Made by a program: the position numbers and the translations under genes
Notes under the pieces: model-generated
Database searches by the model: none
What the model saw: the letters and a program-made list of their open reading frames with translations, nothing else
What the model was told of the DNA's origin: nothing
NCBI GenBank assembly: GCA_026414725.1
Contig: JAOAIL010000002.1
Location: forward strand, 24,223-88,222
Length of the DNA stretch: 64,000 bases
Direction of reading: 5' to 3'
DNA from: a bacterium
Lineage (GTDB): Bacteria > Ratteibacteria > UBA8468 > B48-G9 > JAFGKM01
Part shown: in pieces, positions 13,120 to 64,000 of the stretch
Layout of the letters: each line of letters opens with the position of its first letter
Numbering within the stretch: position 1 is the stretch's first letter

Positions 13120-13129
13120 AGGAGGACAG

Positions 13130-13621
13130 ATGAACTCTATATGGAAGAATGAAAAAAGGGTAGAGATAATGCTTGCTGGACTTGTGTTAATACTTGGGAT
13201 AGTACTTCTTATATCTGAGGTTCTAAAACCAAGTATTAAAATTGCTTCTGTTGATATGAACCGTATAGTGAACGAACATCCTGCAATGGAAGAAGCAGTT
13301 AAAACTTTTCACAAGGAACTTTCTAATCTGCAAAAAACAGTAGATAAAATGAATGAGAAAGAAAAAATAAAACAACAGCAGAGGATACAACAAGAGATTT
13401 CACAGATTGCTATAAGGTTACAGAATGAAGCAATGGCGAAAATAACAAAGGATATTGAAAATTTAGCTAAAAAACAAGGATATTCATATGTAGTGGATAA
13501 GGGCGCGGTTATTGTTGGTGGAAAAGATATAACAGAAGATATCCTTAACGCTATAAGGAAGAATAAAACAGAGGAAAAGAAAGCAGAAGTCCCGGATATG
13601 CCAATGATACCTGTGAAATAG
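13130..13621 (+). CDS. skp: periplasmic chaperone Skp/OmpH family
   Basis: 163 aa. N-terminal signal anchor, IASVDMNRIVNE start typical of OmpH, long coiled-coil Lys/Gln-rich arm. Confidence 0.7.
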   Translation: MNSIWKNEKRVEIMLAGLVLILGIVLLISEVLKPSIKIASVDMNRIVNEHPAMEEAVKTFHKELSNLQKTVDKMNEKEKIKQQQRIQQEISQIAIRLQNEAMAKITKDIENLAKKQGYSYVVDKGAVIVGGKDITEDILNAIRKNKTEEKKAEVPDMPMIPVK

Positions 13622-46521: not shown

Positions 46522-48120
46522 ATGAAAAAATGTCCATTTATTATAATAGTAGGGATATTTTGTACATTTTTAATAGTAGAATCTCCTGCAAAAGACCTTA
46601 TTCTTAACCTCAATAATGTAGATATTAAAACATTTATAAAATTTGTAGGGGACTTTACTAAAGAAAATTATGTTATAGACCCAAATGTAAAAGGAACTAT
46701 AACTGTATATGCTAATAAACCTGTACCTGCAGAAGAGATAGATAAAATTTTTAAAACCATTCTGAATCTTTATGGATATTCAGTTATTAAAAAAGATTCT
46801 CTCTCCATTATAATCCCTTCAACAGAAGCAAGGATAAGAATGCGTGAAATCAATATAGGAGATATTCCTTCTGATAAAATGGAAGATTTTATCATCCAGA
46901 TAATTCCTCTTAAACACTATCCTCCTGATATTCTTGCCCAGATACTTTCCCCTTATATCACAAAAAATGGACAGATTACAGTAGATAGTAGAACCAACTC
47001 TCTCGTTATATCTGATACAGGTGCAAACATCGCTAAAATTCAGGATATCGTAAAAAAGATAGACATTCCTTCTCCCCCGGGCAGAGATGTTTTAAAAATT
47101 TACCGTCTTGAGAATGTTGATGCTGAAGAAGTTGCAAAAATCTTAACACAGCTCCTTACCAGACCAAAACAAACCATCAGAAGGGGCGAGGCACCTCCTG
47201 TTCAACCATCTGTAGTAGCAGCAAAAGCAACTAACTCTCTTATTGTTAATGCTGACCCTGATGACTTTCCTAATATAGAAAAAATAATAAAGGAACTTGA
47301 TGTGCTAACAAATCAGGTTCTTATAGAAGCACTTATTGCAGAGGTATCCTACGAAACAACAAAAAGAATGGGGATAGAATGGGCTGCAACAGACACCTTT
47401 GATGACGAACGATTTACAGGAGGAGCAGGAACAAATTTTGGATATATCCAATCATATGCTACTACAGGTATTGCTCCTGAGGGACTTTCAATAGGTGTAT
47501 ATAAAGGTACTCTTACATATCCACTGGATATAGGAGCACTTATTAACCTTTACTCAAAAGAAGGAGAGTTCAATATCCTCTCCACACCTCAGATAGTTAC
47601 CAGTGATAACCAGGAAGCAGTTATAAACGTAAGTGAAAATATACCTTATCTAAAGGAGACACGATTTATTCAGAGCACTACGGGTTCCACAGGGGACATA
47701 ATAAAAAGTTATGATTATAAGGATGTTGGAATTACACTGAAAATTACCCCCCAGATAAGTCAGGATAAATATGTCCGATTGAAGATATCGCAAGAAGTAA
47801 CAAAAGTCATTGAAGGTGGTCTGGAAGAAGCACCAACAACAGCCAAAAGGTCAGTAGATACAACACTAATAGTTCCCAATAAAAAAACCGTGGTTTTAGG
47901 TGGACTGGTAAGAGATGATACAGAAAATACTGTAAAAAAGGTTCCTTTCTTCGGAGATATTCCTTTACTTGGGAAGTTGTTCCGATATAATTCTAAAAAA
48001 TCCACAAAAACCAATCTTCTTATCTTTATTACACCAAACATTATAACAACCTTTGAGGAAGCAGAGGCAATTAAAAAAGAAAAAGAACAGAGTATTATTG
48101 GAGATAAAATTAAAAAATAA
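46522..48120 (+). CDS. gspD: type II secretion system secretin GspD-like (secretin B)
   Basis: 532 aa. Signal peptide, N0 domain (ILNLNNVDIKTFIKFVGDFTKENYVIDPNVKGTITVY), N1/N2 repeats, canonical secretin domain (VVLGGLVRDDTENTVKKVPFFGDIPLLGKLFRYNSKKSTKTNLLIFITPNII). Confidence 0.85.
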   Translation: MKKCPFIIIVGIFCTFLIVESPAKDLILNLNNVDIKTFIKFVGDFTKENYVIDPNVKGTITVYANKPVPAEEIDKIFKTILNLYGYSVIKKDSLSIIIPSTEARIRMREINIGDIPSDKMEDFIIQIIPLKHYPPDILAQILSPYITKNGQITVDSRTNSLVISDTGANIAKIQDIVKKIDIPSPPGRDVLKIYRLENVDAEEVAKILTQLLTRPKQTIRRGEAPPVQPSVVAAKATNSLIVNADPDDFPNIEKIIKELDVLTNQVLIEALIAEVSYETTKRMGIEWAATDTFDDERFTGGAGTNFGYIQSYATTGIAPEGLSIGVYKGTLTYPLDIGALINLYSKEGEFNILSTPQIVTSDNQEAVINVSENIPYLKETRFIQSTTGSTGDIIKSYDYKDVGITLKITPQISQDKYVRLKISQEVTKVIEGGLEEAPTTAKRSVDTTLIVPNKKTVVLGGLVRDDTENTVKKVPFFGDIPLLGKLFRYNSKKSTKTNLLIFITPNIITTFEEAEAIKKEKEQSIIGDKIKK

Positions 48121-49811: not shown

Positions 49812-50570
49812 GTGTGCTTCATGGATTTAAATCTTGCAATAATTGTACTTGCAGCAGGGCAGGGTAAACGACTTGGTGGAGAATCTCAAAAAGTAGTGAG
49901 AAAACTTCTCGGTAAACCAATTCTTTTATATCTTTTCGATACCATAGAAAAACTCACTCCACAAAAAATAATTGTAATAGTGGGGTATAAAAAGGAAGAT
50001 GTTTTTGAACAATTAAAAAATAAAAAAGTAGAATATGCAGAACAAACTGTTTTAAAAGGAACAGGAGATGCAGTATTACAGGCGAAAGAAAAACTTGCTA
50101 ATTATAAAGGAGATATCCTTATTCTGTGTGGAGATGTCCCTTTTGTAACTATAAACACTCTCAATCAACTTATAACTATCCATAGAAATGGACAGAATGA
50201 CGGGACAATCCTCACTGCCTTTGTAAACAATCCTACTGGCTATGGAAGAATAAAAAGAGATGGAAAGGGTAGGGTGCTTTCTATAATAGAAGAACTTAAC
50301 GCTACACAGGAAGAAAAGTCCATAAAAGAGATTAATGCAGGAATATATGTATTTAAAAAAGAACCACTTTTTGACGCACTTTCAAAGGTTCAACCTGACC
50401 CGATAAAAAATGAATATTATCTAACAGATGTTATTAAACTTCTTTCCGCCAATGGCAAAACTATAGGCACATATACCACAGAAACACCCGATGAATGCCT
50501 CGGAATTAACACTCAGGAAGATATAGAAAAAGCAAAACAATTTCTATCAATAACAGGAGGTAACAGATGA
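49812..50570 (+). CDS. sugar-1-phosphate nucleotidyltransferase, GlmU N-terminal-domain-like (no left-handed beta-helix acetyltransferase domain)
   Basis: 252 aa. LAAGQGKRL pyrophosphorylase loop and GTGDA motif. Sits in the conserved glmU-prs position but is half the length of GlmU. Confidence 0.7.
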   Translation: MCFMDLNLAIIVLAAGQGKRLGGESQKVVRKLLGKPILLYLFDTIEKLTPQKIIVIVGYKKEDVFEQLKNKKVEYAEQTVLKGTGDAVLQAKEKLANYKGDILILCGDVPFVTINTLNQLITIHRNGQNDGTILTAFVNNPTGYGRIKRDGKGRVLSIIEELNATQEEKSIKEINAGIYVFKKEPLFDALSKVQPDPIKNEYYLTDVIKLLSANGKTIGTYTTETPDECLGINTQEDIEKAKQFLSITGGNR

Positions 50571-51496
50571 ATGATTGTCTTATATTTTCAGGGAATGCAA
50601 ATCCTGATTTATCTAAAAAAATCGCTGAACATTTAGGTAAAGAATTAGGCAGGATTAATATATATAAATTTGGAGATGGAGAGATATGTTTACAGATAGA
50701 AGAGAATGTAAGAGGAAAAGATGTTTTTGTTATCCAGCCAACCTGCCCACCTGTAAACGAAAATCTTATGGAACTTCTTATCACACTGGATGCTTTCAGG
50801 AGAGCATCACCTAAAAGAGTTACTGCTGTGTTACCTTATTACGGTTATGCCAGACAGGACAGAAAGGACAGACCACGTGTTCCAATTACAGCAAAACTTG
50901 TTGCTAATCTCCTTGTTTCAGCAGGTGCAGATAGAATTTTAACTATGGATTTACATGCTCCTCAAATACAAGGTTTTTTTGATATTCCTGTAGACCATCT
51001 GTTTGCAGCACCCGTAATAGTCAACTATTTAAAAGGAAAGAATTTTAAAAACCCTGTAGTGGTAGCACCTGATGTTGGTGGAGTAAAAGCAGCTCGTGCT
51101 TTTGCAAAACGACTTGAGGCAGGTCTTGCAATTGTAGATAAAAGACGTATAGGTCCCGATATGGTAGAGACAGTTCATGTAATAGGAGATGTAAAAAACT
51201 GTGAAGCCATCATTATTGATGACCTAATCTCCACTGGAAATACAATGGTTGAAGCAGCTCATAAATTACTTGATGAAGGTGCTTCTTCTATCTATGGTGC
51301 CTGTACACACGCTGTATTTTCAAACAATATAGCCAATAAACTTACTTCCTCTCTTTTCAAAGAGGTCATCATTACAGATACCATTGCAACTGATATACTA
51401 CCACATCACTTTGTAAAACTATCTGTATCAGGGCTTCTCGCTGAAGCAATTAAACGAATACATCTTGAAACATCTGTTAGTTCACTCTTCATCTAA
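50567..51496 (+). CDS. prs: ribose-phosphate pyrophosphokinase
   Basis: 309 aa. PRPP-binding DLHA...DIPVD and IIDDLISTGNT motifs. Confidence 0.9.
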   Translation: MNDCLIFSGNANPDLSKKIAEHLGKELGRINIYKFGDGEICLQIEENVRGKDVFVIQPTCPPVNENLMELLITLDAFRRASPKRVTAVLPYYGYARQDRKDRPRVPITAKLVANLLVSAGADRILTMDLHAPQIQGFFDIPVDHLFAAPVIVNYLKGKNFKNPVVVAPDVGGVKAARAFAKRLEAGLAIVDKRRIGPDMVETVHVIGDVKNCEAIIIDDLISTGNTMVEAAHKLLDEGASSIYGACTHAVFSNNIANKLTSSLFKEVIITDTIATDILPHHFVKLSVSGLLAEAIKRIHLETSVSSLFI

Positions 51497-51570: not shown

Positions 51571-51654
51571 TCATTTTCTTTTCTTAGCAGCTTTCTTTAC
51601 AGATTTCTTAGCAACTTTTTTTGTTGCCTTTTTTGCTGCACATTTTTTTGCCAT
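51571..51654 (-). CDS. small ORF encoding a 27-aa extremely basic peptide (MAKKCAAKKATKKVAKKSVKKAAKKRK)
   Basis: ATG 7 nt downstream of a perfect AAAGGAGGTG Shine-Dalgarno on the minus strand. A TTGACA-17-TTAAAT promoter-like element lies further upstream (51689-51717). TGA stop. Confidence 0.35.
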   Translation of the reverse strand: MAKKCAAKKATKKVAKKSVKKAAKKRK

Positions 51655-51746
51655 TTTTTTCACCTCCTTTAACTTCAAATTTTTCTTCATTTAAAAATAT
51701 ATTTTTGTTTTTGTCAAATTTTTTTTATAATATAAAAGAGGAAAAA

Positions 51747-52730
51747 ATGAAATATCTAATCACAGGTGGTTGTGGATTTATTGGTTCTCATCTTGCAGAA
51801 ACACTTGTTTTATCAGGTAAAGATGTTACGATTATTGATGACCTTTCTACCGGCTCTATTGGTAATGTGGAAAATATCTTAAACAAAAGTAATCTTCATC
51901 TTTTTATAGACACCATCCTTAACTCTGCATTATTAGAAGAATTAATAAAAAAATCTGATTTTATTTTTCATCTTGCTGCAGTTGTTGGTGTAAAAAGAGT
52001 AATGGAAAATCCAGTTGATTCACTGATAATTAACGTGGAAGGCACATACAATGTTTTAAGATATTGTGCAAAATACAACAAAAAAATTTTTCTTGCTTCT
52101 ACATCCGAAATATACGGGAAAAATGAAAATGTCCCATTCAAAGAAGAAGCAGATATTGTTATAGGGACAACTAAGAAAAGAAGATGGAGTTATGCCTGTA
52201 CAAAAGCAATAGACGAGTTCCTTGCATTTGCATTTTATGAAGAAAAGAAACTTCCTGTGATAGTTGTACGACTATTTAATACAGTAGGACCACGACAGAG
52301 TGATAGATATGGTATGGTTATCCCTCGTTTTATAAAACAGGCACTAAATAATTTACCTATAACTGTCTTTGGAGATGGACAACAAACAAGATGCTTCATC
52401 CATGTAAAAGATATAATAGAAGGGATATTAAAACTTATAACAAAAGAAGAAGCATACGGAGACGTTTTCAATATGGGCAGTGAAGAAGAAATAACTATAA
52501 AAGACCTTGCTTTGATGATAAAAAATATGACAGGTAGTTCCTCAGAAGTTATCTTTCTTAATCCTCAAGATATTTATTCAAAGGGCTTTGAAGATATGAT
52601 TAAAAGAGTTCCTGACATTTCAAAAATCAGAAACATTACAGGTTTTTCTCCTAAGTATAACATAAAAGATATTATTAAGGACTGTATAGAAGATGTCAAA
52701 AAAGCATCAGAAATCTCAAAACACATATAG
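51747..52730 (+). CDS. NAD-dependent epimerase/dehydratase (extended SDR; UDP-sugar 4-epimerase / UDP-glucuronate decarboxylase-like)
   Basis: TGGCGFIGSHL Rossmann motif and YxxxK active site. ATG at 51747 (MKYLITGG) preferred over ORF-track 51621. Confidence 0.8.
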   Translation: MKYLITGGCGFIGSHLAETLVLSGKDVTIIDDLSTGSIGNVENILNKSNLHLFIDTILNSALLEELIKKSDFIFHLAAVVGVKRVMENPVDSLIINVEGTYNVLRYCAKYNKKIFLASTSEIYGKNENVPFKEEADIVIGTTKKRRWSYACTKAIDEFLAFAFYEEKKLPVIVVRLFNTVGPRQSDRYGMVIPRFIKQALNNLPITVFGDGQQTRCFIHVKDIIEGILKLITKEEAYGDVFNMGSEEEITIKDLALMIKNMTGSSSEVIFLNPQDIYSKGFEDMIKRVPDISKIRNITGFSPKYNIKDIIKDCIEDVKKASEISKHI

Positions 52731-54237
52731 AACTTTACTTTATATAATACTCCTTGCAGGTCTCATTTTAAGATTTATTTATCTCTATTTATTCAAGGAT
52801 ACCGCTTACTTTAACCCTTTGCTTATGGACGGCTATGACCAGAAAACATTTATTTTATGGGCAAAACAGATTTTAAAACATCCATGGTATGTGAATGGTG
52901 CTCCTTTCTATATGGCTCCATTATATGCTTATTTTCTTGCTGCATATCATCTTTTATCATCGGGGAACCTTATAATAATATCCCTTATTCAACTTATTAT
53001 GGATGTTCTTCTCTGCTTTCTGTTGTACTATATAGGAAAGACACTTTATAATGAATGGGCAGGAATTATTGCCGCATTTTTAGTTGCATTTTATAGAACC
53101 TCTATTGTATACGCTTCTGCTATTCTAAGCGATGGATTAATATGTTTTTTATATATCCTGTTTATATTTCTCATCTACTATTCTCTACAAAAACCTTCTC
53201 TTACAAAATGGATTTTCACAGGCATGGTTTTAGGACTTGCAGCACTTTCAAAACCAACTATTGCCATCTTTCTTCCTTTTCTTCTTATAGGACTTTATCT
53301 ATACCCTGCAAAAAATTTTTTGCCACTGAAAATAAAAGCAAAATGGCAACCTTTATACATTTTCTCTTTAATTTTATTTATCTCTGCATTAGTAATAATT
53401 CCTGTTACTATAAGAAATTACTATGTAAGTGGTAAGTTTGTCCCGATATGTACAAATGGACCTATAAACTGGAAAATAGGCAACAGTGCTGATTCACTCG
53501 GACTTTTTCATTATCCTAAAGGAGAATTATTAAGTCCTTTATCCATTGCCTTCTGGAAACTTTTTTTCATCAAGATGGGACTCTTTTTTACAAGTTATGA
53601 ATGGCCTCAAAATCTTAATGTTTACATAATGGAGAAAATTATACCCGTATTAAAAATTGCTTTTGTAAAGTTTGGGTTTATTGTTCCTTTTGGCTTTACA
53701 GGACTGATTATCCTGTTCAGAAACTGGAAGAAAAATTTTATATTTATCACCTTTACCATCTCCAATGTTCTATGGGTAGTTCTTTTTTTTATAACGGATA
53801 GATACCGTCTTCCAGCAGTTAGTTGTTTTTCTATCTCTGCGGGATGTCTTATTGTCTGGTGTATTGAAAAACTGAAAGAGAAAAAACTTTTACAACCGGT
53901 TATTATTTGTCTGATTGCAGGTATATTTGCTTTTTTCTTCAACACAAAACCAGGTCCTTTAATTCCTGATGTATCATGGAAGGGATTTGCTAACTTAAGT
54001 ATTAAAAATATTCAGTATGACATCCAGCAAAACAATATATACAGTGCACATAAAAAAGCACTTCAATACTATAAATTACTTCCTTATGACTTCAGAGCAA
54101 GTTTTTTACTTGCAAATACATTCTTAATACGGGGAGATAAAGATACTGCTGTCTATCTTTTAAAACAGACACTGGAACTAAATCCTGATTTTACACCTGC
54201 AAAAGATATGCTAAATAATATATCTTCTACTTACTAA
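52693..54237 (+). CDS. GT-C glycosyltransferase of the ArnT/PMT (GT39/GT83) family with C-terminal TPR domain
   Basis: 514 aa. About 11 TM helices with an N-terminal DxY/loop region typical of ArnT/PMT_2. C-terminal ~90 aa TPR repeats (NNIYSAHKKALQYYKLL...LKQTLELNPDFTPAKDML). Confidence 0.7.
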   Translation: MSKKHQKSQNTYRTLLYIILLAGLILRFIYLYLFKDTAYFNPLLMDGYDQKTFILWAKQILKHPWYVNGAPFYMAPLYAYFLAAYHLLSSGNLIIISLIQLIMDVLLCFLLYYIGKTLYNEWAGIIAAFLVAFYRTSIVYASAILSDGLICFLYILFIFLIYYSLQKPSLTKWIFTGMVLGLAALSKPTIAIFLPFLLIGLYLYPAKNFLPLKIKAKWQPLYIFSLILFISALVIIPVTIRNYYVSGKFVPICTNGPINWKIGNSADSLGLFHYPKGELLSPLSIAFWKLFFIKMGLFFTSYEWPQNLNVYIMEKIIPVLKIAFVKFGFIVPFGFTGLIILFRNWKKNFIFITFTISNVLWVVLFFITDRYRLPAVSCFSISAGCLIVWCIEKLKEKKLLQPVIICLIAGIFAFFFNTKPGPLIPDVSWKGFANLSIKNIQYDIQQNNIYSAHKKALQYYKLLPYDFRASFLLANTFLIRGDKDTAVYLLKQTLELNPDFTPAKDMLNNISSTY

Positions 54238-54300: not shown

Positions 54301-54440
54301 ATCTTCCTCTCCTCGTGGAGAAAGAGAAAAGAAATCATTCCTATACATCCATATCCCTAATTTGACATAAGAAACAAAAAAATGTAAAGTAAAAAATGAA
54401 CTTTTACACCGTAATTTCTTAGATTTTGCAGGATATTAAA

Positions 54441-54830
54441 ATGAACAGATGGAAGGACTGGTACGAACAGGGAAAAAGGGATTTTGAAAAAGCAAAGGAA
54501 GACCTTAAAAATAAATACTATGAATGGGTATGTTTCACTTCACAACAATCAGCAGAAAAAATTGTTAAAAGCATAGGTATGAGGATTGGATTAACCTTAT
54601 GGGGACATTCAATAACAGAAATGTTAAACTTAATATCAGAAAAAATAGAAATATCCGAGAATATAAAAGATGCAGGAAAATTACTTGATTTATATTATAT
54701 CCCCCCAAGGTATCCAAATGGATTCCCATCAGGTAAACCATCTGATTATTTTACAGAAAAACAGGCAAAAGAGGCAATAGATGCGGCAGATAAAATCATT
54801 AAATTCTGTGAAATGCATATCAATAGATAG
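54441..54830 (+). CDS. HEPN domain protein (toxin partner of the adjacent nucleotidyltransferase)
   Basis: About 129 aa all-helical, with a HEPN (PF05168-like) pattern including a C-terminal R-x7-H. ATG at 54441 with GGA RBS preferred over the TTG at 54426. Overlaps the downstream MNT gene. Confidence 0.65.
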   Translation: MNRWKDWYEQGKRDFEKAKEDLKNKYYEWVCFTSQQSAEKIVKSIGMRIGLTLWGHSITEMLNLISEKIEISENIKDAGKLLDLYYIPPRYPNGFPSGKPSDYFTEKQAKEAIDAADKIIKFCEMHINR

Positions 54831-55125
54831 AGAGGCACTTTTAAAAAAATTGAGAACAATCGCCATAGAGGCAAAAAAACAATTTTCTGAAATAGAAGAT
54901 ATAAGAATATTTGGTTCTCTCGCCAAAAATCAAGAAACAGGAATAAGTGATATAGACCTTCTTGTAATTGCGCAAACAGAGAAAGTACATCCGATTGAAA
55001 GAGTGAAACCATATTTCTATTTTTTTTCAGAACGGATTGAAATTGGAATTGATTTACTCGTAGCAAAACCAGACGAGTTAGATAACTTTAAGGATATTCT
55101 TAAGGAAAGTTACTCCTTGTTATAA
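54781..55125 (+). CDS. minimal nucleotidyltransferase (MNT) domain protein, antitoxin-type
   Basis: FGSLAKNQETGISDIDLLV = GS-x9-13-DxD Pol-beta-type NTase signature. 114 aa. True start may be the internal GTG around 54808. Confidence 0.7.
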   Translation: MRQIKSLNSVKCISIDREALLKKLRTIAIEAKKQFSEIEDIRIFGSLAKNQETGISDIDLLVIAQTEKVHPIERVKPYFYFFSERIEIGIDLLVAKPDELDNFKDILKESYSLL

Positions 55126-55226: not shown

Positions 55227-55700
55227 ATGGACATCACAGAAAAATTTATAGAAACCATAGGCAATTTAGGAGAAAGTATAGGACTTAATAGAACTGTCTG
55301 TCAGATATATGCACTTCTTTATATAGAACCTGAACCACTCTCACCAATTGAGATAAGTAGAAAATTAGGTGTAAGCAAAGCCAATATAAGTATAAATCTT
55401 AAAACATTAGAGGACTGGAATGCAGTGAAAAAAATATGGCGGAAAGGTTATGCAAGAAGTTTATACACAGCCAATGAAGATATAGAGGGTATTATCTTTG
55501 AAAAACTGAAAACAGGACTTACAAAAAGGAACCGTCTTCTTACGGAAACAATAGCAGAGATAAAAAAAGCAGTTAAAACATCTGATAAAAAACTTAACAA
55601 ACACTATTCTACCCGGCTCTCAAAAGTTGAAGGCCTATTAAAAAAATCAGAACTCTTTACTAAAAATATGGACATCTTAAGGTCTTTTCTGAAAAAATAA
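55227..55700 (+). CDS. winged-helix transcriptional regulator (GbsR/MarR-like)
   Basis: 157 aa. wHTH core (VCQIYALLYIEPEPLSPIEISRKLGVSKANISINLKTLED), C-terminal coiled coil. Confidence 0.5.
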   Translation: MDITEKFIETIGNLGESIGLNRTVCQIYALLYIEPEPLSPIEISRKLGVSKANISINLKTLEDWNAVKKIWRKGYARSLYTANEDIEGIIFEKLKTGLTKRNRLLTETIAEIKKAVKTSDKKLNKHYSTRLSKVEGLLKKSELFTKNMDILRSFLKK

Positions 55701-55751
55701 TCCTGTCCCCCCTTGACAAATTAGTTTAAATAGTTTAAAATAATTTAAACA

Positions 55752-56579
55752 ATGGATAAAGAACAGATAATTAGAATACGAGCAGATAGCAAATTTGGCT
55801 GGGAAACATTAAAAGAAATCTGGCAATACAGGGAATTACTTCTATTTCTTATATGGAAAGATATAAAAGTGAAGTACAAACAGACATCCATAGGTATTGC
55901 ATGGGCAATTATTCAACCATTTTCTATAATGATTATATTTGCTATATTTTTTGGCAAATTTGCAAAAATCCCTTCAGATAATATTCCATATCCAATCTTT
56001 GCTTATAGTGCTTTGGTCCCATGGTCATATTTTTCTAACAGTTTAATAAATGCAACTAACAGTATTGTTGAATATCAAAGGGTAATAACAAAAGTATACT
56101 TCCCCCGTATTTTATTACCCCTGTCATCAGTTCTTCATAATCTTCTTGACTTCATTATTGCATTTATAATACTGGTAGGTATGATGATATTTTATAGGAT
56201 TGTACCTTCTTTTAAAATTTTCTATGCTGGATTCTTCCTTCTACTTGCAATTATAACAGCAACAGGTGTAGGGTTGTGGTTATCTGCCCTAAATGTGAAA
56301 TATCGTGATGTTCGTTATGCAATGAATTTCCTTGTACAATTATGGCTCTTTGCTACTCCTATTGCCTATCCATCTTCTGTTGTTCCTGAACAATGGAAAG
56401 CACTTTATGGACTGAATCCAATGGTAGGTGTAATAGAGGGTTTCAGATGGACATTATTGGGAAGTATAAAACCTGATATGAAGATGCTATCTGTTTCTAC
56501 TGGAATTGTTATGCTTATTCTACTTTTAGGTATGCTATATTTCAAAAAGACCGAAGATACATTTGCTGATATTGTATAA
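55752..56579 (+). CDS. wzm: ABC-2 type polysaccharide/O-antigen exporter permease (Wzm/KpsM/TagG)
   Basis: 275 aa. Six TM helices, ABC-2 signature region (LWKDIKVKYKQTSIGIAWAIIQP). Confidence 0.8.
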   Translation: MDKEQIIRIRADSKFGWETLKEIWQYRELLLFLIWKDIKVKYKQTSIGIAWAIIQPFSIMIIFAIFFGKFAKIPSDNIPYPIFAYSALVPWSYFSNSLINATNSIVEYQRVITKVYFPRILLPLSSVLHNLLDFIIAFIILVGMMIFYRIVPSFKIFYAGFFLLLAIITATGVGLWLSALNVKYRDVRYAMNFLVQLWLFATPIAYPSSVVPEQWKALYGLNPMVGVIEGFRWTLLGSIKPDMKMLSVSTGIVMLILLLGMLYFKKTEDTFADIV

Positions 56580-56585
56580 AGAAAA

Positions 56586-57851
56586 ATGGATAGAGAGATT
56601 GCAATTAAGATAGAAAACTTGAGTAAAAGATATAGAATAGGGGAACAATTGCCTTACCGAACACTGAGAGATGAAATAGTAAAGTTTATCTCTACCCCTT
56701 TCAAAAAAACTTTTAAAAGAGAAGGAGAAATTAACTATATCTGGGCATTGAAAAATGTATCACTGGAAATAATGAAGGGAGAGGTTATAGGTATAATAGG
56801 AAGAAATGGAGCAGGGAAGACCACCCTTTTAAAAATTCTATCCAGAATAACAAAACCTACATATGGCTATGTTGAAATTAGAGGCAGGGTTGGTTCACTC
56901 CTGGAAGTAGGGACTGGTTTCCATCCTGAATTAACAGGGAGAGAAAATATCTATCTAAATGCTGCTATATTAGGTATGAGGAAAAAAGAAATAGACAGAA
57001 AATTTGATGATATTGTTTCATTTGCAGAAATAGGCAAGTTTCTTGATACTCCTGTTAAAAGATACAGTGCAGGTATGTATGTCCGACTTGCCTTTTCAGT
57101 TGCTGCTTATCTTGAACCAGAAATTCTACTTGTGGATGAGGTCTTAGCAGTAGGGGATATTGCCTTTCAGAGAAAATGTCTCGGTAAAATGGGTGAGGTA
57201 GCAAAAGAAGGAAGAACCGTCCTTTTTGTAAGTCATAATATGTCTGCTGTAAGGGGATTGTGTAATAAAGTTATGTGGATTGAAAAAGGGGAGATAAAGA
57301 AAACAGGAAATAGTGATGAAATTACAAGAGAATATGAAGAGGCATTTATCCAGAAATATGGAGGTATTTCCTCTTTAAGGATAAGAGATAAAGAAGAAAT
57401 AAGAAACAAGAAATTCTACTTTGTTAAAACCGAATTATTTGATGAAGAAGGAAATCCGAGGATAGGATTTAAATACAATGAAAAAATCATTTTATCTGTT
57501 CATCTTGAAGGTGAAATTGAAGAAAAATACCATATTGTATTCAGGATATATGACAAAAATGGAATAATGATATTTTCTGGTGCTTCCGCAGAATTACATA
57601 ATAAATATTTTGAGACGGAAGTAATGAACCTAAGAATAGAAATAGGACCGACAAACCTGACAATTGGGAACTATAGAATAGAACTTGTTTTAAGAAAAGG
57701 TAGAATTCAAAGTGGAGATAGGGACGAGATTGATATATGGGAAGATGCAATGAACTTTGAAATAACGGACTGCAGACCATTTGAAACGAACTGGGAACTA
57801 CAGAATCCCAGAGATGGGATTTATATAATACCTAATAGATTTTTTGACTGA
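56586..57851 (+). CDS. wzt: ABC exporter ATP-binding protein Wzt/TagH-like with C-terminal substrate-binding-type domain
   Basis: 421 aa. Walker A GRNGAGKTT, signature YSAGMYVRLAF, Walker B LLVDEVLAVGD. About 170-aa C-terminal beta-rich extension as in Wzt. Confidence 0.85.
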   Translation: MDREIAIKIENLSKRYRIGEQLPYRTLRDEIVKFISTPFKKTFKREGEINYIWALKNVSLEIMKGEVIGIIGRNGAGKTTLLKILSRITKPTYGYVEIRGRVGSLLEVGTGFHPELTGRENIYLNAAILGMRKKEIDRKFDDIVSFAEIGKFLDTPVKRYSAGMYVRLAFSVAAYLEPEILLVDEVLAVGDIAFQRKCLGKMGEVAKEGRTVLFVSHNMSAVRGLCNKVMWIEKGEIKKTGNSDEITREYEEAFIQKYGGISSLRIRDKEEIRNKKFYFVKTELFDEEGNPRIGFKYNEKIILSVHLEGEIEEKYHIVFRIYDKNGIMIFSGASAELHNKYFETEVMNLRIEIGPTNLTIGNYRIELVLRKGRIQSGDRDEIDIWEDAMNFEITDCRPFETNWELQNPRDGIYIIPNRFFD

Positions 57852-57976: not shown

Positions 57977-59512
57977 ATGAAAATCATATATAGAAACTAT
58001 AATCTGAAAAACCCGGAAGTGAGTATTATTCTCATTGATTGGTCTGTGAGACATAGTTTTCATATTCTGGATTATTTGAATCAACAAACTGTTCCGAGGG
58101 ATAGATATGAAATTATATGGATTGAGTATTATAGCAGAATCCCCGAAGAACTTATGGATAAACTCAATAATTCATTAAAAAAAGGAATACCTGTTCTTGA
58201 CCAGTGGATAGTAATGGAAACCCCGGAGGACTTCTGCCATCATAAACACAGAATGTTTAATTTAGGTATTGTTGTGAGCAGAGGAAAGATTATAGTTATT
58301 CCTGACAGCGATGCGATGGTAAGAAGCACTTTTATAGAGTCAATAATCAAGACATTTAATGAAAATGACAATATTGTTTTACATATAGATGAGATAAGGA
58401 ACAAGAAAAGGAAATTTTATCCATTTAACTATCCTTCTATTGATGAAATTACTTCTGAAGGAATGGTATTCCGCTGGGATGGTAAAACACCTGTATCTGA
58501 ATTATCTGACCCTATACATCTTCTCAATTATGGCGCCTGCCTGTGTGCAAAAAGAGATGACTTAATAGATATAGGTGGTGCTGATGAACATATTGATTAT
58601 TTAGGGCATGTATGTGGTGTATATGATATGACATTCCGTCTGAAAAACGCTGGCAAAAGAGAAATCTGGCATACAGAAGAATTTCTATACCACACCTGGC
58701 ATCCGGGACAGGGAGGCAGTAAAATAGACCATAGAGGACCTAATGATGGTCTAGAAATGTCAACAACAGCACTTTCTTCTATTTTTAATGGAAGGATTTT
58801 AGCCCTTGTAGAAAATCCTGCAATAAAATTACTCAGAACAGGTATAACAACGAATACAGACAATTTATTAGCAGAATTTAAACCAGCAGAAGAATGGCGA
58901 GCTGACAATATCAAAAAAACACCTTCGTTTAATAGTTTTTTAAAGAAATACCAGGATTGCTATTTTAAGATAAATACTCTGTTCTGGAAATTTCTCTTTA
59001 TAAACTCCTTCATGCCAGCAATAAAATCTCTTCCGAGAAAAATTCAAGGCGAAATAAACAAGAATAGAAAACAAATTTTGGCTGAAAGTAATTTGAATAA
59101 AAAAAGTATTTACCCTGTTGTTCCTTTAATAAAAAAGTTATATAAAGCACCTCAATGGTTTTATTTTTTTCTTCTACGTTTTTTTTATTCCTATAACAAA
59201 AATATATTAGAAAACTGCCTTAGTTTATTTTATAATAATCTTAAAGAAGAGACAGCAGTAGTTGTGGTAGGGAACAAGGACTTAAAGAAAATTATTAAAT
59301 ATATTGCTAAAAAATTCAAAATAAATATAAGAGAGATAGATAAATGTGAAACCTTTAATGGAAAGACAATCATTGCAATAACACCTGAAGTAGAAGTGGG
59401 AAGTTTTGATATCCCTACAGTAAACTGGAAAAGATACGAAAGGGAAGTAAGAAAAGAGATTAGCAAATTAATGAACTATGGAGTAAAAAAAGAGAACATT
59501 TTAATTTTATGA
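57977..59512 (+). CDS. GT-A (family 2-like) glycosyltransferase with ~260-aa C-terminal domain of unknown function
   Basis: 511 aa. N-terminal SIILIDW...DSD motif region (GT-A, DxD). C-terminal half has no recognisable motif. Confidence 0.55.
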   Translation: MKIIYRNYNLKNPEVSIILIDWSVRHSFHILDYLNQQTVPRDRYEIIWIEYYSRIPEELMDKLNNSLKKGIPVLDQWIVMETPEDFCHHKHRMFNLGIVVSRGKIIVIPDSDAMVRSTFIESIIKTFNENDNIVLHIDEIRNKKRKFYPFNYPSIDEITSEGMVFRWDGKTPVSELSDPIHLLNYGACLCAKRDDLIDIGGADEHIDYLGHVCGVYDMTFRLKNAGKREIWHTEEFLYHTWHPGQGGSKIDHRGPNDGLEMSTTALSSIFNGRILALVENPAIKLLRTGITTNTDNLLAEFKPAEEWRADNIKKTPSFNSFLKKYQDCYFKINTLFWKFLFINSFMPAIKSLPRKIQGEINKNRKQILAESNLNKKSIYPVVPLIKKLYKAPQWFYFFLLRFFYSYNKNILENCLSLFYNNLKEETAVVVVGNKDLKKIIKYIAKKFKINIREIDKCETFNGKTIIAITPEVEVGSFDIPTVNWKRYEREVRKEISKLMNYGVKKENILIL

Positions 59513-59521
59513 GAGGATATA

Positions 59522-60502
59522 ATGGTTATAAGCAGAACTCCTTTTAGAATATCTTTCTTCGGTGGAGGAACTGATTATCCTGCATGGTACCGTAATAATA
59601 AAGGGTCTGTACTTTCTACTACAATAGATAAATATTGCTATATAAGTTGTAGATATCTTCCTCCATTTTTTGAACACAAACATAGGGTTGTATATTCTTT
59701 AATAGAAAATGTTAAATCTATTGGTGAGATTAAACATCCTGCTGTAAAGGCAGTATTAGAGTACATGAAAATAGATGAAGGGGTTGAGATACACCATGAT
59801 GGTGACCTACCTGCCAGAACAGGACTGGGTTCAAGTTCATCTTTTACAGTTGGACTTCTGAATGCTCTTTATGCATTAAAAGGGACTATGGCATCCAAAG
59901 AAAAATTAGCAAAAGAAGCGATATATATTGAACAGGAGATACTGAAAGAAAATGTTGGCTCGCAGGACCAGGTTGCAGTAGCATTTGGAGGCCTTAATAA
60001 AATATCTTTCCATCCAGACGATAGTTTCACAGTAGAACCAATTATTCTTCCATCAGAAAGAAAAGAAGAACTTCAAAGACACTTACTACTCTATTTTACA
60101 GGATTCTCAAGAATTGCATCAGAAATTGCAGCAGAACAGATTTCTTGTATTGACAAAAAGAAATATGAATTAAGAATAATTCAACAGATGGTTGATGAGG
60201 CAATAAACATACTCGCTGGTGGAAAAGATATAAAAGAATTTGGGAAATTGCTTGATGAGACATGGAAGTTAAAAAGAGAACTAACCAAAAGAATATCTAA
60301 TGAATATATTGACAATATATATGAAAAAGCAAGGGAATCAGGAGTAATAGGAGGCAAACTATTAGGAGCAGGTGGAGGTGGATTTATGCTATTTTTTGCT
60401 CCTCCAGAATTACACCAAAGAATAAAAGAAGAGATAGGTGGACTTTTTGTTCCATTTAGGTTTGAAAATTATGGCAGTCAAATAATTGTATATCAAGAGT
60501 GA
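59522..60502 (+). CDS. GHMP-family sugar kinase (HddA / GlcNAc-kinase-like)
   Basis: 326 aa. ATP-binding PARTGLGSSSS GHMP motif and a C-terminal GHMP_C region. Confidence 0.7.
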   Translation: MVISRTPFRISFFGGGTDYPAWYRNNKGSVLSTTIDKYCYISCRYLPPFFEHKHRVVYSLIENVKSIGEIKHPAVKAVLEYMKIDEGVEIHHDGDLPARTGLGSSSSFTVGLLNALYALKGTMASKEKLAKEAIYIEQEILKENVGSQDQVAVAFGGLNKISFHPDDSFTVEPIILPSERKEELQRHLLLYFTGFSRIASEIAAEQISCIDKKKYELRIIQQMVDEAINILAGGKDIKEFGKLLDETWKLKRELTKRISNEYIDNIYEKARESGVIGGKLLGAGGGGFMLFFAPPELHQRIKEEIGGLFVPFRFENYGSQIIVYQE

Positions 60503-60514
60503 TAAGGAGATAAA

Positions 60515-61348
60515 ATGCATGATATAAAAAAGTTAGAAATAAAAGCATGTGAAATGAGAAAAAAAGTGCTTGATATGTGTATTAAAGCAGGGACAGGCCA
60601 TGTAACCTCTTCTTTTTCCTGTGTGGAAATTCTTGTTGCTTTGTATCACGGGAAAATTCTTAATTACAAACCAGATGAACCTGAATGGGAAAAAAGAGAT
60701 AGATTTATTTTAAGCAAAGGACAGGCGAGCCCTATTTTATATGCTGTTTTAGCTGATACAGGATTTTTCCCGATAGAATGGCTAGATAATTTTTGTAAGG
60801 CAGATGGAAAATTCGGAGTACATTTACAGCATGATATCCCAGGAGTAGAAATTACAGCAGGTTCTCTTGGACAGGGCTTTGGAATAGGAGTAGGCATGGC
60901 ATTAGCAGCCAAACAGGATAAGAAAGACCATATGATATTTACACTACTTGGAGATGGAGAGTGTTATGAAGGCTCTATCTGGGAATCTGCTATGTTTGCA
61001 AGTCATCATAAGTTAGACAATTTAGTTGCCATAGTTGACAGAAATGGACTATGTGTTATGGACTTCACAGAAAAAATCGTGAAATTAGAACCACTGGATA
61101 AAAGATGGGCATCTTTTGGATGGGATACTGCTGTAATTGATGGCCATTCATTTAAAGAGCTTTTTTCCGTTCTTTCAAAAGTTCATAAACGGGCAAATAA
61201 AACCCAAAAACCACTGGTTATTATAGCCAATACAATAAAAGGAAAAGGTGTTTGTTTTATGGAAAACAAACCGTTATGGCATGGTGTAGCACCGAAAGGT
61301 AAAGAAGCAGAATTAGCAATATGTGAATTACTAAAAAAAGGAACTTAA
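60515..61348 (+). CDS. transketolase, N-terminal (TPP-binding) subunit of a split transketolase
   Basis: 277 aa. GHVTSSFSCVEIL and GDGE TPP motifs. Confidence 0.85.
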   Translation: MHDIKKLEIKACEMRKKVLDMCIKAGTGHVTSSFSCVEILVALYHGKILNYKPDEPEWEKRDRFILSKGQASPILYAVLADTGFFPIEWLDNFCKADGKFGVHLQHDIPGVEITAGSLGQGFGIGVGMALAAKQDKKDHMIFTLLGDGECYEGSIWESAMFASHHKLDNLVAIVDRNGLCVMDFTEKIVKLEPLDKRWASFGWDTAVIDGHSFKELFSVLSKVHKRANKTQKPLVIIANTIKGKGVCFMENKPLWHGVAPKGKEAELAICELLKKGT

Positions 61349-61349
61349 A

Positions 61350-62285
61350 ATGAATAAAATATCAATGCGAGATGCTTTTTTTGGTAGATTATATGAACTT
61401 GCAATAAAAGATAAAAATATAATGGTAATAAGTGCGGATATGGGAGCACCCGCCCTTGATAAATTCAGAAATAATCTGAAGGAACAGTTTATAAATGTTG
61501 GCATCGCTGAACAAAATATGGTTACCTTAGCAACAGGGCTTGCTTTAAGTGGGAAGAAAACATTTATTTATGCCATTATGCCCTTTGTTACCGCAAGATG
61601 TTATGAAATAACCAGAATATGTATAAGCCTCATGAATGTTCCTGTAGTTGCCGTAGGAGTAGGAGCAGGTTTTAGTTATCACGACTCAGGTCCCACTCAT
61701 CATTCTACTGAAGATATAACAATTATGCGGGCACTACCCAATATGGTAGTTTTTAACTCTACAGATAGTATAATGGCAGGTAAATTGGCTGATATTTCCT
61801 ATCATTTATCTTCCCCGTGCTATATCCGACTGGACAGAGAACTTTTACCTGATATCTATACTAAAAATGAAAATTTTTCTGATGGATTAACCGTCTTTAA
61901 ACAAAGTAAAAATATTTACATCATAGCAACGGGAAATATGGTTCACAGAGCCATGGATGTCTCTGAAGAACTTAAAAAACATAACATCTCTGCTGGTGTA
62001 ATTGACCTGTATAGAATAAAACCTCTAAATGAAAAATTGTTATCTTCTATAGTTAAAAATATAAAAGGGATTGTTACCCTTGAAGAACATTTTCTCGCCG
62101 GTGGTATAGGAAGTTTGGTCGCTGAATTTCTCGCTGACAATAACATAAAACTACCACTTAAAAGGATAGGGATAAATGATAGATATTACTATGTGTATGG
62201 TGGAAGGGAGAATATTCAAAAGATATGTGGACTGGATATAAAGACCATTGTAAAGGAAATTCTTAAATGGATACAAAAAATCTGA
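61350..62285 (+). CDS. transketolase, C-terminal (pyrimidine-binding) subunit of a split transketolase
   Basis: 311 aa. NVGIAEQNMV motif. Starts 2 nt after the N-subunit stop. Confidence 0.85.
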   Translation: MNKISMRDAFFGRLYELAIKDKNIMVISADMGAPALDKFRNNLKEQFINVGIAEQNMVTLATGLALSGKKTFIYAIMPFVTARCYEITRICISLMNVPVVAVGVGAGFSYHDSGPTHHSTEDITIMRALPNMVVFNSTDSIMAGKLADISYHLSSPCYIRLDRELLPDIYTKNENFSDGLTVFKQSKNIYIIATGNMVHRAMDVSEELKKHNISAGVIDLYRIKPLNEKLLSSIVKNIKGIVTLEEHFLAGGIGSLVAEFLADNNIKLPLKRIGINDRYYYVYGGRENIQKICGLDIKTIVKEILKWIQKI

Positions 62286-63202
62286 TTTCCATTGTGTTCT
62301 CATTCAGGAATGAAGAAGAAAACATCCCAGACCTTATAAAAAGGACGAAAAATGCAATACAAAATACAGGTTATGAGTATGAAATAATTTTCGTTAATGA
62401 CGCTTCTACTGATAAATCGCTTGAAATTCTAAAGAGATATGCTGAAGAAGATACAAGAATAAAGATAATAAATCTTTCCAGAAGATTTGGATATAATCAA
62501 GGGCTGATTGCAGGGCTTAATTATGCCAGAGGAGATGCTGTTATAACTCTTGATGCTGACTTACAGGACCCTCCAGAATTAATACCACAACTTATTAAAA
62601 AATGGGAAGCAGGAATGGATATTGTTCATACAATAAGAAAAAAACGAGAAGGTGAAAGTAAAATTAAAATTGTTCTTACAAAGATTGCATATAAAATTAT
62701 CAGATTTATCTCTGAAGTTAAATTATTACAAGAAGCAGGGAATTTCAAACTCATATCAAGAAAAGCACTGAACGAAATTTTAAAAATACGAGAAAAAGAC
62801 CCTTATGTAAGGGGAATAGTAGGTTGGGTTGGATTTAAACAGGACTATATTTATTATGTCCGTGAAAAAAGAGTAAAAGGTAAAACACATTTCCCCTTTT
62901 TAAGAAGTATGGGACCATTTATGGAATTTATAAGTGGACTAACTTCTTTCTCAATTTTACCTCTGTTATACATCGTTATATTTGGAATTATTTTATTTTT
63001 TTCTGGAATAATTTTCTTAATCCTGTCAATTTTACATATTTTAGAATTCTGGCTCGTGATTATATTTTTCCTGTCTGGAATTATAGTTTTCTCTATAGGA
63101 ATTGTTGGTGTTTATACGGGAAGAATATGGAAAGAGGTTCTAAATAGGCCTAATTATATCGTTGAAAGTTTAATTAACATCAATGAAAACGATACATCAT
63201 AA
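62267..63202 (+). CDS. GT2 polyprenyl-phosphate sugar transferase (ArnC/GtrB/DPM1-like) with C-terminal TM helices
   Basis: 311 aa. ISIVFSFRNEEENI...FVNDASTD...TLDADLQDPPE (DxD/DAD). Two C-terminal TM helices. Confidence 0.8.
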   Translation: MDTKNLISIVFSFRNEEENIPDLIKRTKNAIQNTGYEYEIIFVNDASTDKSLEILKRYAEEDTRIKIINLSRRFGYNQGLIAGLNYARGDAVITLDADLQDPPELIPQLIKKWEAGMDIVHTIRKKREGESKIKIVLTKIAYKIIRFISEVKLLQEAGNFKLISRKALNEILKIREKDPYVRGIVGWVGFKQDYIYYVREKRVKGKTHFPFLRSMGPFMEFISGLTSFSILPLLYIVIFGIILFFSGIIFLILSILHILEFWLVIIFFLSGIIVFSIGIVGVYTGRIWKEVLNRPNYIVESLININENDTS

Positions 63203-64000
63203 AAAAATTTATTTCTTTTCAATATGGTTATGTGCTTTATTATTCTTATGGATTCCCTATATCTTCTCATATTTTGCCTTTATTGACGAGGCAGGGTTAT
63301 TCGCATCAGCTATACAACTCGCAAAAGGGAAACTAATATATAAAGATGTTTTTGAACCAAAAGGTCCATTCCTACTCTGGATTTATTTACTTATGGTAAA
63401 AATTTCTGCAACACACTACACATTAATACTCCATCTAACACTTTTATGTTTAATTATATTAAATTCATTTTTGATATATAAAATACTTCTCAAAGATATA
63501 AAAAGAGAATTTGCTTTTATAGCCTTTTTATATCCATTCTTCCTTGCTTGTTTTTACCCCGGGAATATGGCAGGCAGCAGGGAACCTTTCTTTACATTTT
63601 TTATACTAATAACATTTTATTTACTTTTATACTTTTCTCATAAAAATAAATTGGTTTTTTTAGCAGGAATTATCGCTGGAAGCACTTTACTATTCAAACC
63701 ATTTAGTATATTTTCTATATTATCCTGTGGTTTTCTTTCATACTATTACACAAAAGTAAGATTAAAACCTCTAATATTTTTTATTGCTTCTTCAATAGTA
63801 CCTGTTTTTTTTATTTTTTATCTGTTTCACAAAGGATTACTATCTGACTTCTGGTTATGGAATGTTAAATATGCCATTTTTATTTCAAAAACAATCCCTT
63901 TATGGAGAAAGATTTATCATACCCTTGCTATGTTAGGTAGATTACTATTGTTTAATCCAGTATATTTAATGTTTGGAATACCTGTAATATTTAACAAATC
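63183..64000 (+). CDS. second ArnT/PMT-like GT-C polytopic glycosyltransferase (partial; continues beyond window end)
   Basis: ATG at 63183 overlapping the GT2 stop. At least 8 predicted TM helices. ArnC-ArnT-type gene pairing. Confidence 0.5.
   Translation, partial: MKTIHHKKIYFFSIWLCALLFLWIPYIFSYFAFIDEAGLFASAIQLAKGKLIYKDVFEPKGPFLLWIYLLMVKISATHYTLILHLTLLCLIILNSFLIYKILLKDIKREFAFIAFLYPFFLACFYPGNMAGSREPFFTFFILITFYLLLYFSHKNKLVFLAGIIAGSTLLFKPFSIFSILSCGFLSYYYTKVRLKPLIFFIASSIVPVFFIFYLFHKGLLSDFWLWNVKYAIFISKTIPLWRKIYHTLAMLGRLLLFNPVYLMFGIPVIFNK

Follow-up and report, generated by a model that had tools for sequence, protein, structure and literature searches.

What does a split transketolase do among genes for the assembly and export of a surface glycan? 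The question is raised by a stretch of 64,000 nucleotides (the window) from contig JAOAIL010000002.1 of a bacterium of the Ratteibacteria (assembly GCA_026414725.1), in which a GHMP sugar kinase gene and the two genes of a split transketolase, TK-N and TK-C, follow genes for an ATP-binding cassette (ABC) exporter of the Wzm/Wzt type. A sequence-only reading of this locus had proposed a self-contained route, with a nucleotidyltransferase at 49812 and a short-chain dehydrogenase/reductase (SDR) at 51747 as further members, which elongates a sugar phosphate by a two-carbon (C2) unit and afterwards activates the product. We conclude, with a probability that we put slightly above even (about 0.55), that the kinase and the split transketolase belong to a cassette for a C-branched deoxy sugar in nucleotide-activated form, which probably stems from a heptose and is destined for a surface glycan.

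The kinase and the split transketolase in related loci

That the kinase is HddA-like, as had been suggested, is borne out by its GHMP domains and by its best characterised relatives in NCBIfam and the Protein Data Bank (PDB), which are heptose kinases (closest PDB entries 3k85, 4usk and 4n3o, E 2.5e-33 to 3.7e-31). Thousands of related proteins share 60-87% identity and come from Omnitrophota, Ratteibacteria, anammox Planctomycetota, Nitrospirota, Nitrospinota, Chlorobi, Dehalococcoidia, phyla of the candidate phyla radiation (CPR), Proteobacteria and Methanoperedens, and we assign the kinase to a distinct, very conserved HddA-like family of its own.

Eighty genomic loci were fetched around the kinase and the neighbouring open reading frames (ORFs) were clustered; counts are given per 81 non-duplicate loci, with hosts among Omnitrophota, anammox Planctomycetota, Nitrospirota, Chlorobi, Dehalococcoidia, CPR bacteria, Proteobacteria and Methanoperedens. 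A two-subunit thiamine diphosphate (ThDP) enzyme is encoded no more than 10 kb from the kinase in 68 of the 81, and the association of kinase and transketolase is far beyond chance. The other recurrent neighbours are Fcl-like SDRs (65/81), a DegT-family protein (62/81), a B12-binding radical SAM protein (B12-rSAM; 58/81), an HddC-like nucleotidyltransferase (57/81) and GmhA (23/81). Against NCBIfam models, cassette partners score 156 bits for HddC, 204-262 for RfbH and 211 for GmhA; Fcl reaches 405-436 bits in loci L012 and L014, and GmhB in L012 is above its cut-off. The RefSeq names of the cassette genes are generic.

A reverse set was built from the 80 metagenome loci closest by TK-N similarity (54-70% identity), of which the 42 that extend over at least 10 kb were counted. 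An adjacent B12-rSAM gene is present in 40 of these, the kinase in 29, the DegT gene in 27 and a nucleotidyltransferase gene in 20. All 42 have a glycan-cassette context, and none has the context of a housekeeping-type transketolase. Two cassettes, which include GT2 and GT-C glycosyltransferase genes, are plasmid-borne and flanked by insertion sequence (IS) elements. Plasmid pDMC1 of Solidesulfovibrio magneticus RS-1 carries genes for a radical SAM protein, a NUDIX protein, the kinase, an E1 alpha subunit, a TK-C-domain protein, a GDP-L-fucose synthase, a DegT protein, an SDR, a nucleotidyltransferase and a GT-C, and pAB510f of Azospirillum sp. B510 carries a transketolase, a TK-C-domain protein and the kinase. 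We therefore place the kinase and the split transketolase, on this gene content, in a mobile and widely distributed cassette. The kinase and the B12-rSAM protein, the latter at least 72% identical among the matches listed, have hundreds of matches that extend over unrelated phyla and include CPR bacteria and a Methanoperedens archaeon; we read such conservation as a sign that horizontal transfer has been frequent and the sequences strongly constrained.

Individual cassettes also contain genes of other kinds. NUDIX hydrolase genes adjoin the kinase in both plasmid cassettes, the Azospirillum cassette includes a TylF-type O-methyltransferase and an aldo/keto reductase, and in locus L168 a NodU/CmcH-type carbamoyltransferase gene (11501-13336) stands between the kinase and the transketolase.

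The window enzyme is recognisably a split transketolase. TK-N matches the N chain of PDB 6YAK with 247 bits and TK-C matches 6YAJ with 167 bits, and the identity to this enzyme, the split transketolase of Carboxydothermus hydrogenoformans, is 44.7% for the N subunit and 31.8% for the C subunit. The two halves score 278 and 179 bits against the NCBIfam transketolase equivalog with its cut-off of 488 bits, a full-length model that is out of reach for half-proteins. Residues were compared by alignment to the C. hydrogenoformans enzyme and human transketolase (yeast numbering) in 124 TK-N and 101 TK-C cassette sequences. The cofactor residues are kept throughout, window included: the GDG Asp and the Asn in 124/124, and the cofactor-activating Glu418 in 101/101. 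In the window TK-N retains GDG, Asn, His30, His103 and His263, and TK-C retains Glu418, His481 and the phosphate-binding Arg359 and Arg528, the last of which is Arg in only 65/101 members of the clade. The substrate channel is altered. His69, His469 and Asp477 are replaced by Gln, Gly and Ser, and Phe442 by Ile, and these changes run through the clade (His469 to Gly and Phe442 to Ile, 101/101; Asp477 to Ser, 85/101; His69 to Gln, 81/124). In a neighbour-joining tree the cassette TK-N sequences, including that of the window, form one clade which excludes the canonical 6YAK. The earlier proposal that this transketolase works outside pentose-phosphate metabolism is thus upheld by cassette context, pocket changes, a separate clade and the interchangeable slot described below, and we regard it as a dedicated glycan-sugar enzyme with an altered substrate pocket.

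Within the cassette TK-N sequences, the catalytic-site His30 is Arg in 31/124 (L001, L005, L016-L020, L026, L032, L040, L046, L047, L073, L084 and others) and His103 is Ile in 28/124. These replacements suggest that a different donor or chemistry may be used in that subgroup.

The acceptor of the C2 unit

The ThDP enzyme next to the kinase is not always a transketolase. The slot is filled by a transketolase type in 41 of the 81 loci, by a type resembling pyruvate dehydrogenase E1 (PDH-E1) in 15 and by a short alpha/beta type in 10. Counted by subunit, a TK-C/E1-beta-like protein neighbours the kinase in 55 loci, TK-N in 41, a PDH-E1-alpha-like subunit in 16 (15 of them without TK-N) and the short alpha subunit in 10. 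Since sedoheptulose-7-phosphate is beyond the reach of a PDH-E1-type enzyme, the function common to all three types would be the transfer of a ThDP-bound C2 unit, and an interchangeable slot of this kind argues for C2 branching of a keto-deoxyheptose linked to guanosine diphosphate (GDP) rather than for elongation of a sugar phosphate. The order proposed earlier, elongation by C2 and then activation, is therefore probably the reverse of the true one, in which activation comes first and the C2 unit is placed on a keto-sugar nucleotide.

An unlikely alternative keeps the split transketolase on sugar phosphates before activation, where it would produce or replenish sedoheptulose-7-phosphate, or a different ketose phosphate lengthened by C2, for the kinase, and might be the only transketolase of the cell. 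The heptose route starts from sedoheptulose-7-phosphate, some cassettes include GmhA and GmhB, and the window enzyme, whose TK-N still shares 44.7% identity with a true split transketolase, has kept every cofactor and catalytic residue as well as the two phosphate-binding arginines. This supply role is nevertheless hard to reconcile with the 25/81 loci in which PDH-E1-type and short alpha/beta enzymes, unable to make the compound, take the same place, or with the invariant Gly at position 469 and the near-invariant Ser at 477 in the substrate channel. The tightest partner, moreover, is the B12-rSAM (40/42 loci), and the neighbourhood lacks pentose-phosphate genes; among the 80 nearest metagenomic relatives every one with enough flanking sequence sits in a cassette, and the homologous cassettes of Azospirillum and Solidesulfovibrio are carried on plasmids.

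The DegT proteins bear on what becomes of the C2 unit. The catalytic Lys is replaced by His in 100 of 105 cassette DegT proteins (loci L001-L164), and Cys-rich motifs lie nearby. The Lys-to-His exchange characterises the E1/ColD sugar 3-dehydratases, so that these proteins are expected to be 3-dehydratases of this type and not aminotransferases. In a further reading, which we consider very improbable, a sugar is N- or O-acylated with a C2 group (glycolyl or acetyl) that the ThDP enzyme provides, in the manner of the transketolase-like enzymes of tetrahydroisoquinoline antibiotics that form glycolyl-acyl carrier protein, and no C-C branch arises. Both transketolase- and E1-type enzymes do form C2-ThDP intermediates, and oxidation of these can yield acyl groups, as in systems of the QncN/QncL type, but a 3-dehydratase in this position usually leaves no amino group to acylate, and the conserved neighbours include no lipoyl/E2-type acyltransferase or carrier protein.

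For the branching reading we infer the following route, in which the substrates, the order of steps, the chemistry of C2 branching (by analogy with YerE and E1-type branching enzymes) and the fate of the sugar are all conjectural. In full cassettes GmhA, the HddA-like kinase (acting on heptose-7-phosphate at C1), GmhB and the HddC-like transferase would yield GDP-D-glycero-alpha-D-manno-heptose. The SDRs and the E1/ColD-type 3-dehydratase would convert it to a keto-deoxy sugar nucleotide, and the two-subunit ThDP enzyme would place a C2 unit on the keto carbon; in the window this unit is presumably a hydroxyacetyl group drawn from a ketose phosphate, because the ThDP enzyme here is of the transketolase type. 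The B12-rSAM and the Fcl-like reductases would complete the sugar. A GtrB/ArnC-like GT2 enzyme (62267) may then load it onto undecaprenyl phosphate, and a GT-C enzyme may attach it, on the periplasmic side, to a glycan built with the help of a 511-residue GT-A protein and exported by Wzm/Wzt. The suggestion of an unusual heptose-type sugar is accordingly plausible, given the HddA-like kinase here and the HddC-like transferase, sometimes with GmhA/GmhB, in related loci. A bolder version, to which we give distinctly less credence, is that the product is an undescribed C-branched higher sugar (C9 or larger) made from GDP-heptose, that the transketolase takes a keto-sugar nucleotide as its acceptor, that the B12-rSAM methylates or rearranges the sugar, and that the cassette is spread horizontally over more than 10 bacterial phyla, CPR bacteria and Methanoperedens archaea. 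For a transketolase this would be the first physiological role of its kind beyond the antibiotic clusters of actinomycetes.

The cassette resembles several known systems in part. Like the pathway to GDP-D-glycero-alpha-D-manno-heptose (GmhA, HddA/WcbL, GmhB and HddC in Campylobacter jejuni, Burkholderia pseudomallei and Aneurinibacillus thermoaerophilus), it has a kinase that matches heptose kinases, with HddC-like and sometimes GmhA/GmhB proteins adjoining in related cassettes. It differs in that the kinase falls under the HddA cut-off and forms its own family, in that GmhA, GmhB and HddC are missing from the window, and in the coupling of the kinase to ThDP and B12-rSAM enzymes, which known heptose pathways lack. 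With the split transketolase of C. hydrogenoformans (6YAK/6YAJ) the cassette enzyme shares the two-gene architecture, the fold family and the cofactor and catalytic residues, whereas the changed His69, His469, Asp477 and Phe442, the separate clade and the glycan context set it apart.

The ThDP enzymes YerE and E1-type alphaKADH2 branch nucleoside diphosphate-linked keto-deoxy sugars (PMC12247030). Like these enzymes (YerE for yersiniose A in lipopolysaccharide, the E1 type for aldgarose and kibdelomycin), the cassette ThDP enzyme is encoded with enzymes for 3-deoxy-4-keto sugar nucleotides, in the family though not within the window; YerE, by contrast, belongs to the decarboxylase superfamily. 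Split transketolases have only been proposed as branching enzymes, in miharamycin and amipurimycin biosynthesis (2025 review, PMC12247030), and the 13 branching transketolases predicted there are all from Streptomycetes, none having been assayed in vitro. Unlike those antibiotic clusters, the cassette occurs in diverse, mostly uncultured bacteria, in a surface-glycan context, with a presumed GDP-heptose-type sugar and a near-constant B12-rSAM. Literature searches returned no description of the cassette, and a possible connection with the biosynthesis of bradyrhizose was weighed but lacked support. By analogy, the cassette is best seen as a case of ThDP-dependent sugar branching, but one that would be of transketolase type, would act on a GDP-heptose-type sugar coupled to a B12-rSAM and would serve the surface-glycan loci of many phyla.

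If this is true, a large and strongly conserved group of genes labelled no more precisely than 'transketolase', 'kinase' and 'radical SAM protein' encodes a new sugar-branching pathway for cell-surface glycans, and among its hosts are groups of environmental importance: anammox bacteria, Nitrospira/Nitrospina, Omnitrophota, Dehalococcoidia and rhizosphere Azospirillum and Rhizobium. When the metabolism of uncultured organisms is reconstructed, such genes would no longer be mistaken for transketolases of the pentose-phosphate pathway. The enzyme would also be a natural ketone-accepting transketolase giving tertiary alcohols, an activity sought in biocatalysis and not yet demonstrated.

Cassette partners inside and beyond the window

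Neither an HddC-like nucleotidyltransferase, an E1/ColD-type 3-dehydratase, an Fcl-like SDR, a B12-rSAM, GmhA nor GmhB was found within the 64-kb window. The route is thus not self-contained within the window, as the sequence-only reading had it, since the first four of these, present in more than 100 related loci, are absent. The window ends 1.7 kb after TK-C, and relatives carry the partners on that side. A syntenic relative (L168/L169; identities in Table 1) has a GT-C gene, an SDR gene and a B12-rSAM gene after the trailing GT2 gene, with the SDR and the B12-rSAM within 2.6 kb of TK-C. In L005, whose kinase is 87% identical, the order SDR, radical SAM, 3-dehydratase, SDR is found 3' of TK-C, and in L085 and L089 a radical SAM gene stands immediately 3' of it. 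Because these loci carry their partners 3' of TK-C, the rest of the cassette probably lies just beyond the end of the window.

We find it doubtful that the cassette is instead reduced here, so that the kinase and transketolase alone give a simpler, different product or persist as remnants that play no part in the Wzm/Wzt glycan. No further cassette gene is found in 62 kb upstream, the gene after GT2 is unlike that in L168, and close relatives differ in the genes that separate the kinase from the transketolase. Yet the kinase and transketolase genes are intact, with 67-76% identity to those of L168, whose SDR and B12-rSAM genes are so near to TK-C, and with the remaining cassette downstream in L005, L085 and L089 the window simply ends too early.

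Several points weigh against the branching reading as a whole. The partners are absent from the 64 kb, which leaves the completeness of the pathway here unproven, and the gene right after GT2 differs from that of the syntenic L168. The kinase scores 140.6 bits against the NCBIfam HddA equivalog, far under the cut-off of 600. In 13 of the 81 kinase loci no ThDP enzyme is encoded within 10 kb, many of these contigs being short. Both phosphate-binding arginines of TK-C are compatible with an ordinary sugar-phosphate substrate too, acceptance of a keto sugar by a transketolase has yet to be demonstrated in vitro (PMC12247030), and the glycan structure is not known from any host of the cassette.

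The upstream genes that had been named as partners were both rejected. The nucleotidyltransferase (49812-50570) corresponds to the uridyltransferase half of GlmU alone and has a stop codon that overlaps the start of prs, a classic housekeeping pair; prs was rejected as a pathway member together with it. The SDR (51621/51747) is UDP-xylose-synthase/ArnA/LegB-like and thus of a different type from the Fcl-like SDR of the cassette. A GT-C gene and a HEPN/MNT toxin-antitoxin pair separate both from a regulator gene, and this regulator and the best promoter-like site also lie between 49812 and the export locus.

The GlmU-like protein has 252 residues, aligns to positions 2-236 of GlmU models that are about 450 positions long and is without the acetyltransferase domain; the pair with prs spans 49812-51496. 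At 51621-54237 the SDR gene is immediately followed by a PMT_2 GT-C gene (52693) with a TPR tail, and together with the ArnC-like GT2 at 62267 the two resemble, by analogy, a putative module for pentose modification on a lipid carrier. The toxin-antitoxin-like genes, a HEPN protein (54426-54830) overlapping a small MNT/Pol-beta-type nucleotidyltransferase (54781-55125), lie between the GT-C gene and the MarR regulator.

The gene block from the regulator to the window end

The features of the block are collected in Table 1. The sequence-only reading was right as to the split transketolase, the GHMP kinase and the Wzm/Wzt exporter: the four ORFs that it named lie exactly where it had put them, and Pfam domains confirm them. 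The common strand and tight spacing also fit a packing of the transketolase and kinase genes with glycan genes in one likely operon.

Table 1. Features of the export and cassette block, with identities to the syntenic relative L168/L169
Feature	Position	Strand	Matches and remarks	Identity
MarR/PadR-type transcriptional regulator	55227..55700	+	NCBIfam HTH regulator matches; precedes block	62%
Best sigma-70-like promoter match	55713..55741	+	TTGACA-17-TAAAAT, 11/12 to consensus only; immediately 5' of wzm	
Wzm, ABC-2 permease	55752..56579	+	ABC2_membrane PF01061 63.9 bits	61%
Wzt, ATPase with C-terminal carbohydrate-binding domain	56586..57851	+	ABC_tran PF00005 80.3 bits; Wzt_C PF14524 41.8 bits (cut-off 30.4)	74%
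GT-A (GT2-like) glycosyltransferase, 511 aa	57977..59512	+	Helical stalk and small C-terminal alpha/beta domain (predicted)	68%
GHMP sugar kinase, HddA-like, 326 aa	59522..60502	+	GHMP_kinases_N and _C (PF00288, PF08544)	76%
TK-N, split transketolase ThDP-binding (PP) subunit, 277 aa	60515..61348	+	Transketolase_N PF00456 137.8 bits	73%
TK-C, split transketolase Pyr and C-terminal subunit, 311 aa	61350..62285	+	Transket_pyr PF02779 105.3 bits; Transketolase_C PF02780 87.2 bits	67%
GT2, polyprenyl-phosphate sugar synthase type (PgfS/ArnC/GtrB-like)	62267..63202	+	PF00535 117 bits; hydrophobic C-terminus	80%
Polytopic membrane protein, possibly GT-C	63183..64000 (cut by window end)	+	Very hydrophobic translation; early FIDEAG motif	

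From wzm to TK-C the gaps are 6, 125, 9, 12 and 1 bp, and at the next two junctions the genes overlap by 19 and 20 bp. A regional scan with shuffled controls gave 69 promoter-like sites where 66.5 were expected and 12 terminator-like sites where 6.8 were, which is chance level, so that the operon is drawn from gene spacing alone; on that basis wzm and the genes up to the window end are likely to form one operon. Homologues of the regulator (49-62% identity) occupy the same place, 5' of the kinase or of Wzm, in L003, L004, L005, L007 and L168.

By Pfam the locus has the combination that defines Wzm/Wzt glycan export, an ABC-2 permease with an ATPase that bears Wzt_C. As in export of the E. coli O9a type, Wzm and a Wzt with Wzt_C are followed by a glycosyltransferase, but unlike there no WbdD-type terminator was recognised at the window locus. 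It is pure speculation on our part that the unusual sugar might be the cap read by Wzt_C.

The GT2 enzyme behind TK-C reaches 227 bits against PgfS and 148 bits against ArnC in NCBIfam, both under the model cut-offs. The membrane protein that follows has no Pfam match; it is possibly a GT-C transferase, as its position is held by GT-C genes in L168 and pDMC1. As in the undecaprenyl-phosphate sugar routes (ArnC/ArnT, GtrB/GtrV, PgfS), a GT2 gene thus has GT-C genes near it (52693 and probably 63183), a pairing also seen in L168 and pDMC1; in contrast to those routes, the GT2 falls short of the equivalog cut-offs and no flippase was identified.

The 511-residue protein, recorded at NCBI as hypothetical protein N3D17_01615, falls below the GT2 Pfam threshold (19.7 bits, cut-off 23.3), and 38 of 40 of its relatives match GT2 PF00535. 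Its family shares an invariant DSD (D110-S111-D112) and about 60 invariant N-terminal residues. An AlphaFold (AF2) model with a confidence score (pLDDT) of 76 is matched by Foldseek to the GT-A enzymes 6p61, RmlT and K4CP at E ~2e-9 and probability 1.0, and both sequence and model clearly indicate a GT-A glycosyltransferase family. The sequence-only reading gave this protein a C-terminal domain of about 260 residues with no recognisable motif. The lack of a motif stands, in that Pfam, PDB profile and fold searches of the C-terminal part gave no match; its size was overestimated, the part being about 200 residues long (about 310-511). There the predicted structure has long helices and then a small alpha/beta domain. 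Modelled separately with AF2, the part has low confidence (pLDDT 64) and Foldseek finds nothing below E 1.8, and a weak PglD_N match in one relative is a mere hint of a small Rossmann-like domain. Among relatives the C-terminus is replaced by TPR, flippase-like or PilZ modules.

Farther upstream in the window, two secretin genes (43485-45371 and 46522-48120) with a HEAT-repeat protein gene between them lie 3' of PilM/PilO-like genes and 5' of the gene for an ATPase of the type II secretion system E (T2SS-E)/PilB type.

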